13,399 nucleotides of DNA from the IMG/VR virus record IMGVR_UViG_2667527582_000004; one strand, given 5' to 3'. This DNA comes from a virus (lineage: Duplodnaviria > Heunggongvirae > Uroviricota > Caudoviricetes). Position numbers and translations under genes: made by a program. The notes beneath the pieces are model-generated. The model saw nothing but the letters and a program-made list of their open reading frames with translations, did no database searches and was not told where the DNA came from. Below are positions 11,213-11,942 of the stretch, in pieces (the stretch's first letter is position 1; every line of letters starts with the position of its first letter).

Positions 11213-11280
11213 GCGGGTCCTTTCCGGCGATCCGGTAGGCTACGGGGCGGCGACCTCGCGGGTTTTCGCTATTTATGAGC
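11213..11280. other. cos site, lambda-type (cosN cohesive-end sequence at 11245-11256)
   Basis: GGGCGGCGACCTCGCGGGTTTTCGCTATTTATGA (11245-11278) matches the phage lambda left end (12-nt cohesive end GGGCGGCGACCT); the upstream GGGTCCTTTCCGGCGATCCGGTAGGCTACG closely resembles the lambda right end. Sequence diverges from lambda immediately downstream, where cosB would lie. Confidence 0.85.
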
Positions 11281-11389
11281 CTTTTTCGGGTGCTGGTGGT
11301 GGTTTTGTTGTTCGCTCTATCTCTATGAATAAAAAGGAAAAGATAAAGCCAATACACCAACCTGAAACATTACTTAAGTGGGGATATTG

Positions 11390-11860
11390 ATGAAATCGCA
11401 CCTGATGAACAAAAAAAACATGGCGCAAAGCTGCCGTGTAAGTGCGACAGCGTTCGACAAGTGGGGAGTGACTCCCGTTGAACGTAAAGGCCGCGAGGCG
11501 TTTTATGATGTTGCCAGCGTAATAGACAATCGGGTTAGCAATGCAATTAACCAGATTACAGACGACAAAGGCGAGATTGATGATGATGAACTCCTACGAG
11601 TCAGGATCAGATTGCTGACAGCACAGGCAGAGGCGCAGGAGCTTAAAAACGAGCGCGAACGCGGCGACGTTATTGATACAGCGTTTTGTATATACGTGCT
11701 TTCAAAATTGGCGAGTCAGATTTCTTCAATCATGGACAGCCTGCCGCTTGCCATGACAAGGAAGTTTCCCGACATGAAGCCGTCTATGCTGGATGGACTG
11801 AAAAAGAAGTTATCAGAGCCTGTAACGCATGCGCAAAACTTGACGAAAACATACCGCTGA
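11390..11860 (+). CDS. terminase small subunit, lambda Nu1-like; C-terminal region frame-shifted relative to lambda (possibly truncated or a pseudogene)
   Basis: N-terminal two-thirds align with lambda Nu1 (LTAQAEAQELKNERERGDVIDTAFCIYVLSKLASQISSIMDSLPLAMTRKFPDM versus lambda LTRAQADAQELKNARDSAEVVETAFCTFVLSRIAGEIASILDGLPLSVQRRFPEL). After FPDM the Nu1-like C-terminus (SRHEAVY...LDENIPLMLSDYLMETAG) continues in the -1 frame (track ORF 11686..11931), while the in-frame reading ends at 11860 with an unrelated tail. Start 11390 chosen for RBS GGGGA. Confidence 0.8.
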   Translation: MKSHLMNKKNMAQSCRVSATAFDKWGVTPVERKGREAFYDVASVIDNRVSNAINQITDDKGEIDDDELLRVRIRLLTAQAEAQELKNERERGDVIDTAFCIYVLSKLASQISSIMDSLPLAMTRKFPDMKPSMLDGLKKKLSEPVTHAQNLTKTYR

Positions 11861-11942
11861 TGCTGTCCGATTATCTGATGGAAACTGCCGGAAACGTACC
11901 GGATAAGTTGCAGCCGAATAAAGATAAGTAACGTAGTACGCT

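Follow-up and report, generated by a model that had tools for sequence, protein, structure and literature searches.

A helper-embedded PICI with a lambda-type cosN, a candidate N15-like R3 element and its own Nu1-family terS gene, interrupted by a one-base frame break

The stretch of viral DNA that we analyzed (hereafter the window; 13,399 nt, IMG/VR record IMGVR_UViG_2667527582_000004, Caudoviricetes) carries a satellite in which a lambda-type cosQ and cosN stand directly upstream of a gene of the Nu1 family, terS, and in this gene the reading frame is lost at a run of five adenines. We consider it likely that this region is the packaging module of a helper-embedded PICI (HE-PICI), in which a lambda-type cosQ/cosN and an N15-like R3 would be served by the element's own Nu1-family TerS, and that terS has been freshly broken in this lineage. 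Taken by itself, the frameshift is a broken gene in a known satellite class and tells little. What we think worth keeping is the intact design, that is, the widespread HE-PICIs of E. coli, Citrobacter and Enterobacter that have a lambda-type cosQ/cosN, what appears to be an N15-like single-R3 cosB, and a full-length TerS of their own.

The window is a draft scaffold of the JRRM to JRSS series (GCA_001413685.1, JRSG01000010.1), interrupted by ten-N gaps at 2108-2117 and 13266-13275, and only the part between these gaps is one real contig (Table 1). In the assemblies of this series, the island contig is joined via ten-N runs to different, unrelated chromosomal loci in each. The asnB/tRNA flank of the window was considered as an integration site and ruled out, since it is attached through such a 10-N join and sister assemblies join other unrelated loci at this point. 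The island is 99.94% identical to NZ_AP045067.1, where the element splits a portal gene, and the arrangement is the same in NZ_CP006834.2; in complete genomes, the lambda-like prophage to which the split portal gene belongs is equipped with nohD/Nu1, terL and head genes of its own. Portal fragments also flank the island contig in sister assemblies, and the junctions share the att core AAGGCGAT.TATG. The element is ~10.9 kb in length (2118 to ~13035), is laid out unidirectionally in int-alpA, Bro, primase and late zones, and is without a full virion gene set. It is a helper-embedded PICI residing in a lambdoid portal gene. A scan of 10700-12700 for sigma-70-like promoters found none, which is consistent with read-through late transcription, although it is no proof of it. 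The 127-aa AlpA-like gene upstream of cos travels with cos and terS in distant satellites; its product was considered as an Rpp candidate and rejected, as it matches only the structure of an AlpA-family regulator (8c3t).

Table 1. Features of the window, with positions counted from its first nucleotide.
Feature	Position	Strand	Basis or remark
Contig with helper-embedded PICI	2118-13265	+	10-N gaps on both sides; Pfam; genome comparison
int	2318-3559	+	Pfam
AlpA	3561-3818	+	Pfam
Bro-N	3875-4453	+	Pfam
DUF4222	6089-6388	+	Pfam
Primase, D5-type	6385-8139	+	Pfam
SSB	8736-9185	+	Pfam
Capsid, lambda-E-type	about 9402-10442	+	Pfam
Decoration, D-type	10452-10793	+	Pfam
AlpA-family winged-helix gene, 127 aa	10805-11188	+	Directly upstream of cos
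cosQ-like GGGTCCT	11215-11221	+	Common to lambda, helper prophage, EcCICFT073 cos1 and satellites with 60% TerS identity
cosN and flank	11242-11278	+	37 nt identical to lambda; cohesive end inside
12-nt cohesive end GGGCGGCGACCT	11245-11256	+	Sequence comparison with lambda
Candidate R3 equivalent GGTGGTGGTTTTGTTGTT	11295-11312 (cos bp 51-68)	+	Conservation among satellites; resembles R3-N15 GAGGTTGTTGTTT
terS frame as it stands, 156 aa	11390-11860	+	139 native residues, then 17 out-of-frame and stop
A5 run, lesion site	11801-11805	+	A6 in relatives
Displaced 3' part of terS, -1 frame	11806-11931	+	Intact-protein residues E140-K180, then stop 11929-11931
93-aa gene	11943-12224	+	76% identical to gene downstream of rppA in EcCICFT073
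3' fragment of interrupted lambdoid portal gene	about 13032-13265		Element comparison

At the cos site, the block 11213-11279, cosQ included, differs from lambda by 5 mismatches, and cosQ, cosN and their spacing are all of the lambda type. The 37-nt string identical to lambda spans bp 1-35 together with the 2 nt that close the right end, and the chance expectation for such a string is 0; an earlier note on this DNA had described the cohesive end and its flanks as near-identical to lambda cosN, and this exact match bears the description out. Past bp ~35, similarity ends both to lambda and to the lambda-type helper prophage of a sister strain. The same note had placed the departure from lambda at the cosB R-sites, and this is where we found it: R3 has been replaced, the 22-bp I1 stretch and R1 are both absent, and R2 is no more than half-similar, so that the R3-I1-R2-R1 arrangement of lambda cosB was not found at the satellite cos. 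A retained cosQ/cosN combined with a foreign cosB is the published hallmark of Gram-negative PICIs, in which a lambda-type cosN is cut by the helper TerL and packaging specificity comes from a different cosB together with a satellite protein (PMC6739421, PMC9026076). The general packaging idea put forward in the earlier note is reasonable and agrees with this literature.

Comparison with more distant relatives points to a single element within the satellite cosB. Satellites whose TerS is only 60% identical have kept cosQ, cosN and one more block, with the intervening sequence changed. This block, GGTGGTGGT(T/G)TTGTT at cos bp 51-65 (window 11295-11309), has divergent flanks and is the only part of cosB conserved among satellites with this TerS. 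Its core, GGTTTTGTTGTTC at bp 56-68, resembles R3-N15, which is located at bp 48-60 in a cosB that consists of a single R3; N15 DNA is not packageable by lambda terminase (PMC9026076). The motif is short and T/G-rich, and it lies 6-8 bp further from cosN than that of N15, which counts against the R3 assignment and thus against our preferred explanation. Judged from its sequence, the satellite cosB resembles one that has been reduced to a single N15-like R3, to which TerS would bind. No internal R-type repeats were found in the satellite cosB. A single inverted R-type match falls within terS, at its conserved NKKN codons, and probably reflects the coding sequence.

The whole split Nu1-like gene occupies 11390-11931, and GGGGA precedes its start. 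Its 156-aa product is present in exactly this form in the protein collection (P0002). At the lesion site, the window reads CTG-AAAAA-GAAG, while relatives that are 99.9-100% identical have AAAAAA. When 5,426 complete E. coli genomes were searched by megablast with 11150-12250, many matched at 99.9% identity with a single gap, and in the one of these that was aligned, the missing A was the sole difference over 1,101 bp. Restoring this A yields a 180-aa protein, annotated in RefSeq as "terminase small subunit." The earlier note was right that the N-terminal part is in frame and that homology to the Nu1 C-terminus continues in the -1 frame. Its explanation for the shift, a 13-nt deletion relative to lambda near 11767, did not hold: one A is missing from an A6 run instead, and the deletion is ruled out by the gapless protein alignment in that region and by comparison with near-identical genomes. 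There, FPDMKPSMLDGLKK faces lambda FPELENRHVDFLKR in frame 0, and the 7-mer CGACATG, on which the deletion had been based, is shared by chance and belongs to different frames in the two sequences. Through the frameshift, the last 41 residues (140-180) fall out of frame, and the TerL-binding-type C-terminal ~40 residues are absent from the translated window product. Their counterpart in lambda Nu1 is the TerL-binding domain, and TerL binding is poor when lambda TerS lacks the last 30 residues (PMC9026076).

The repaired 180-aa protein is a member of the Pfam family Phage_Nu1 (PF07471; 85.8 bits against a cut-off of 30, E 3.3e-24), and the truncated gene is likewise flagged as PF07471. BLASTP aligned the repaired protein to lambda Nu1 at 38% identity, with residues 75-167 running without gaps against lambda 89-181, and hhalign gave a probability of 99.9% over 160 columns (residues 6-165 vs. 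lambda 3-179); the homology is thus end to end and includes the N-terminal winged-helix DNA-binding region. The C-terminal ~40 residues of satellite TerS resemble the TerL-binding end of lambda Nu1 (about 40% identity), which makes them a putative TerL-binding tail. Among 50,697 phage records, the closest phage TerS was N15 gp1 at 47.6%, lambda-type Nu1 proteins stood at ~38%, and no phage TerS at or above 60% identity was found. Satellite TerS and N15 gp1 also have in common the recognition-helix string AFDKWGV.PVE..GRE of the helix-turn-helix, where lambda has TIQNWQEQGMPVLRGGGKGNE. A PDB sequence search with TerS returned no meaningful match, and no RppC chain was among its matches. The solved Nu1 and Rpp structures comprise N-terminal domains only and are too diverged from satellite TerS. 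With an AlphaFold2 model at pLDDT 55.5 and pTM 0.30 (15-sequence alignment), the support for the fold of the N-terminal domain is that of sequence homology only.

TerS proteins of this family are numerous, occur in E. coli, Shigella, Citrobacter and Enterobacter, and are full-length at 168-186 aa. In 15 of 15 aligned clusters (57-90% identity, several genera), the N-terminal domain is retained together with the full-length C-terminus. The 60% homologue likewise belongs to helper-embedded satellites, here inside the capsid gene E, which have the same capsid-decoration-AlpA-cos-terS module without terL.

Against this background, the frame break is rare. When a 71-nt probe around the A-run was compared with complete E. 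coli genomes carrying this allele, A5 was present in none of 56, and all 25 of the probe matches listed showed a single extra base and an intact-gene annotation. By exact-sequence look-up, at least 1000 contigs encode the intact 180-aa protein, as against 34 that encode the 156-aa product. The shift was not conserved in related islands (56 complete genomes, 15 clusters), and no satellite lineage was found in which the truncation is a fixed feature. These counts uphold the earlier note's alternative of a pseudogene, in the sense of a non-conserved lesion. The lesion is most likely a recent, lineage-private slip at a mutable homopolymer, which would have inactivated the gene.

A rather unlikely explanation is that the strain truly has A6 and an intact terS, and that the homopolymer was systematically under-called in the assemblies of one project. 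The lesion does lie within a homopolymer, the window, as a draft scaffold, runs into unrelated loci across 10-N joins, A5 occurs in no complete RefSeq genome with the allele, and all 8 of the retrieved truncated-gene contigs (each >1 Mb) come from one WGS draft series, their islands being 100.000% identical over 11 kb. However, indel-prone data should affect more than one run, and over 11,148 bp the island differs from the nearest complete genome (NZ_AP045067.1) by 6 SNPs and by no indel other than this one, although its homopolymers number 21 of six bases, 3 of seven and 3 of eight. At least 8 assemblies moreover agree in this state, and the exact truncated protein is encoded on many short contigs in a collection whose listed sources are NCBI and Logan. 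We therefore think it more probable that one clone has recently undergone a real mutation than that the base-calling is at fault. The same contraction was seen in two further alleles, P0096/P0099 and P0092, which then read ...DGLKKKLSEP...; P0096/P0099 show ~9% DNA divergence (47-48 mismatches/542 nt), belong to a different island adjoining clpS, and come from four independent samples. Contigs of another allele bear on the artefact in both directions, as in L019 and L020, besides the contraction, the capsid gene is split and the AlpA-like gene shortened, a sign that these data may be prone to indels, whereas the Logan contigs L018 and L021 carry it with the neighbouring genes intact. Since the A-run is a six-base homopolymer, recurrence at this site is what mutation alone predicts. 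Other truncated members of the family have shifts at other positions. The contraction in P0096/P0099 and P0092 fits a hotspot but could mean that the truncated form is tolerated or favoured, and to this extent it weighs against the explanation that we prefer.

The truncated product could be imagined to have a function of its own, as an Rpp-like decoy or adaptor: the 156-aa protein would bind DNA, oligomerise, and join a helper TerS that supplies TerL, so that packaging is redirected to the satellite cos. We regard this as very unlikely. The location of the gene speaks for it: in EcCICFT073, exactly this slot is taken by rppA, and here as there the gene closely follows a PICI cos in which cosQ/cosN are of the lambda type and cosB is foreign. 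So does size, in that Rpps are TerS-like winged-helix proteins of 144-153 aa, 30-40 residues shorter than TerS (PMC9026076; PMC6739421), and the truncation removes about that much, at the same point in three alleles. However, no sequence relationship to RppA was detected (BLASTP gave no alignment and hhalign a probability of 0.06%), nothing supports heterodimer formation with a helper TerS that is 38% identical, and the full-length C-terminus was present in every cluster examined across genera. The truncation is as rare as the counts above indicate, and the recurrent site is simply a six-base homopolymer that is not conserved in the family, where LKREV, LKTEV and IKIEV alleles occur and the 60% homologue has ATT AAA AAG GAG, in frame, at this position. 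The decoy reading offered in the earlier note therefore gained no positive support, the product being unrelated to Rpp and the truncation being fixed in no satellite lineage found. A broader conjecture, which we hold to be highly doubtful, is that satellite TerS proteins lose their TerL-binding tail at the A-run not simply through decay but by a recurrent, selectable route towards an Rpp-like adaptor, which would bind DNA and oligomerise, would depend on borrowed helper TerS to reach TerL, and would thereby interfere with the helper as well. If this were true, the three alleles with identical truncation would be snapshots of Rpp-type hijackers arising from captured terminase genes.

It is even harder to credit that the A-run serves recoding or phase switching, whereby -1 slippage on G_AAA_AAG would yield full-length TerS or the run would act as a reversible on/off switch; we deem this extremely improbable. 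A -1 slip after AAG (11804-11806) would read GAA GTT ATC, which is the native continuation and restores the wild-type LKKEV exactly. Decoding of A_AAG by tRNA-Lys is a classic slippery pair in E. coli (dnaX, IS911), and the recurrence of the contraction would suit either version. Nevertheless, G_AAA_AAG fits only 6 of the 7 positions of the X_XXY_YYZ heptamer, no downstream RNA structure was found (minimum free energy -12 kcal/mol, z-score -0.15), and the site is not conserved among homologues, one of which (L014) has AAA AAG GAG in frame. The combination of heptamer, stimulatory element and conservation that marks a programmed -1 frameshift site was not found here. Furthermore, the ancestral gene needs no frameshift, and six bases are short for a contingency tract.

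We return to a satellite with its own TerS, freshly broken in the window lineage, as our preferred explanation. On this explanation, cosQ and cosN would have been copied from lambdoid helpers, allowing the helper TerL to nick and terminate there. An intact satellite TerS, with an N-terminal winged-helix domain of the N15 gp1 type, would bind its own R3, and its Nu1-type C-terminus would recruit the helper TerL for nicking at the lambda-type cosN and termination at cosQ. The lambda-type TerS of the helper, which needs R3 and R2, should use the satellite cos poorly. The satellite would in this way acquire a packaging specificity of its own, as SaPI TerS (in a pac system) and the Rpp of EcCICFT073 give to theirs, and replacement of TerS would represent an alternative to the Rpp adaptor (PMC6739421), applied to a cos system. 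In the window lineage, loss of the TerL-binding end would lead to poor packaging, unless, as is very unlikely, the truncated TerS borrows the helper TerS as Rpp does.

The element is in good agreement with the helper-embedded PICIs of Tommasini, Mageeney and Williams (PMC10111431; bioRxiv 10.1101/2022.07.18.500453), with which it shares the integrase-AlpA, Bro, primase and late zones in one direction, captured capsid and decoration genes, and insertion in, and co-orientation with, a lambdoid late gene, here portal B. A difference concerns packaging, as the model 11capE and EcCICFT073 are reportedly without terS and have a cos in common with the helper, whereas the satellite described here encodes a Nu1-family TerS itself and differs from its helper in cosB. 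The other close parallel is N15 (Feiss et al. 2015, reviewed in PMC9026076), whose gp1 is the closest phage TerS and has the same recognition-helix sequence, and whose cosB, as that of the satellite appears to do, contains one R3-like T/G-rich element without I1, R2 or R1. The two differ in cosN, which is GGGCGGCGTCCG in N15 and the lambda sequence in the satellite, and in the distance of the R3-like core from cosN noted above; the satellite module also has no adjacent terL and is satellite-encoded. The pac-type PICIs of Gram-positive bacteria follow a similar logic, in that SaPI TerS pairs with the helper TerL at a satellite-specific site, and an intact version of the gene studied here would do likewise. 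SaPIs, however, use headful (pac) packaging and an unrelated TerS family, while the present system is of the cos type, belongs to the Nu1 family, and has its gene broken in the window.

These comparisons suggest that the packaging-specificity module of Gram-negative PICIs is a swappable cassette with at least two solutions, TerS replacement and TerS adaptor. Satellites of the former kind would be a natural system in which to study why one R3 is enough for cos recognition and how TerS C-termini are matched to their TerL partners. We know of no characterisation of the TerS-type PICI cassette beyond a passing mention. That mention states that "some PICIs contain a terS homolog" (PMC6092414).

The cassette character is clearest in comparison with EcCICFT073, for which cos1 and RppA have been described (Fillol-Salom 2018 and 2019, PMC6092414 and PMC6739421; Murialdo and Feiss 2022, PMC9026076). 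The late modules have the same order of capsid, decoration, small gene, cos, specificity gene and 93-aa gene, and EcCICFT073 cos1 likewise joins a lambda-type cosQ/cosN to a foreign cosB with apparently a single R3-sized block. The block itself differs, being, oddly, CCACCACCAC where the satellite here has GGTGGTGGT. At the slot of the specificity gene, EcCICFT073 has rppA, and relatives of the window have a full-length Nu1 homologue with a TerL-binding-type C-terminus; since the intact terS is such a full-length homologue, the helper TerS should not be needed as a bridge. The 127-aa AlpA-like protein has no similarity to the product of the 137-aa gene at the same place in EcCICFT073. Because the specificity gene and the small genes upstream are thus unrelated to those of EcCICFT073, cos and its neighbours behave as a swapped cassette, and the 93-aa gene marks its right border.

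The A6-to-A5 contraction that breaks the frame of the Nu1-like small-terminase gene terS recurs in identical form in two further terS alleles (proteins P0092, P0096, and P0099), one of which is ~9% diverged, lies in an island adjoining clpS, and was found in four independent samples (L018–L021). This recurrence looks like the product of a mutational hotspot, or it possibly reflects a truncation that is tolerated.

The satellite is a helper-embedded PICI whose host is a lambda-like prophage; it occupies the B site, within that prophage's portal gene, and the core of the satellite/portal gene junction is AAGGCGAT.TATG. 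The island contig begins almost exactly at attL, a break presumably caused by the repetition of portal sequence among prophages. The window is a scaffold containing two 10-N runs, so the island's apparent neighbours, asnB with the tRNA fragment (1–2107) on one side and the final 124 bases on the other, do not truly adjoin it. In sister assemblies of the same series, the identical island contig is joined to other unrelated loci, for example lldP/infA and pgsA/dmsC.

Coordinates of the features discussed, in the window and in related loci
Feature	Window	Related loci	Remark
Portal gene parts	13032–13265	L017, 4367–5200 and 16111–16893	flank the satellite
AlpA-family winged-helix protein, 127 aa	10805–11188	L014–L016 (distant satellites), 8405–8788	directly upstream of cos
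93-aa protein gene	11943–12224	L013 (EcCICFT073), 3374–3655	
terS of L018–L021		1501–1989	contracted allele
10-N runs	2108–2117 and 13266–13275		two in total

The AlpA-family gene, cos, and terS are conserved together in satellites of other genera; the AlpA-family protein may act as a late regulator or as a packaging accessory. In EcCICFT073, a PICI, the slot directly upstream of cos holds an unrelated 137-aa gene. The specificity proteins of the two elements, TerS here and RppA in EcCICFT073, are likewise unrelated, yet the 93-aa protein, for which no Pfam match was found, is 76% identical between them despite the wholly different specificity genes next to it. The window carries a single cos, while EcCICFT073 has a second, inverted copy, cos2 (L013 3264–3313, minus strand), that matches window 11241–11290 at 90%. 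At the R3 position, the window reads GGTGGTGGT (11295–11309) and EcCICFT073 cos1 reads CCACCACCAC (L013 ~2611–2623), which is roughly the reverse complement of the former; this near match may be a simple-repeat coincidence or may mark an inverted site.

Between the 93-aa gene and attR, ~800 bp (12225–13030) contain no gene annotated in RefSeq relatives, and short patches within them (12583–12626 and 12773–12862) are 85–86% identical to EcCICFT073; the stretch possibly encodes an RNA or contains attP arm sites. Elsewhere, the mechanical ORF list overcalls at 4410–5480 (+) and 9189–10442 (+): in the region overlapped by the 356-aa GTG ORF, RefSeq places YlcI/YnfO on the minus strand and small genes on the plus strand, and the capsid gene, listed mechanically at 417 aa, is annotated at 346 aa (~9402–10442).
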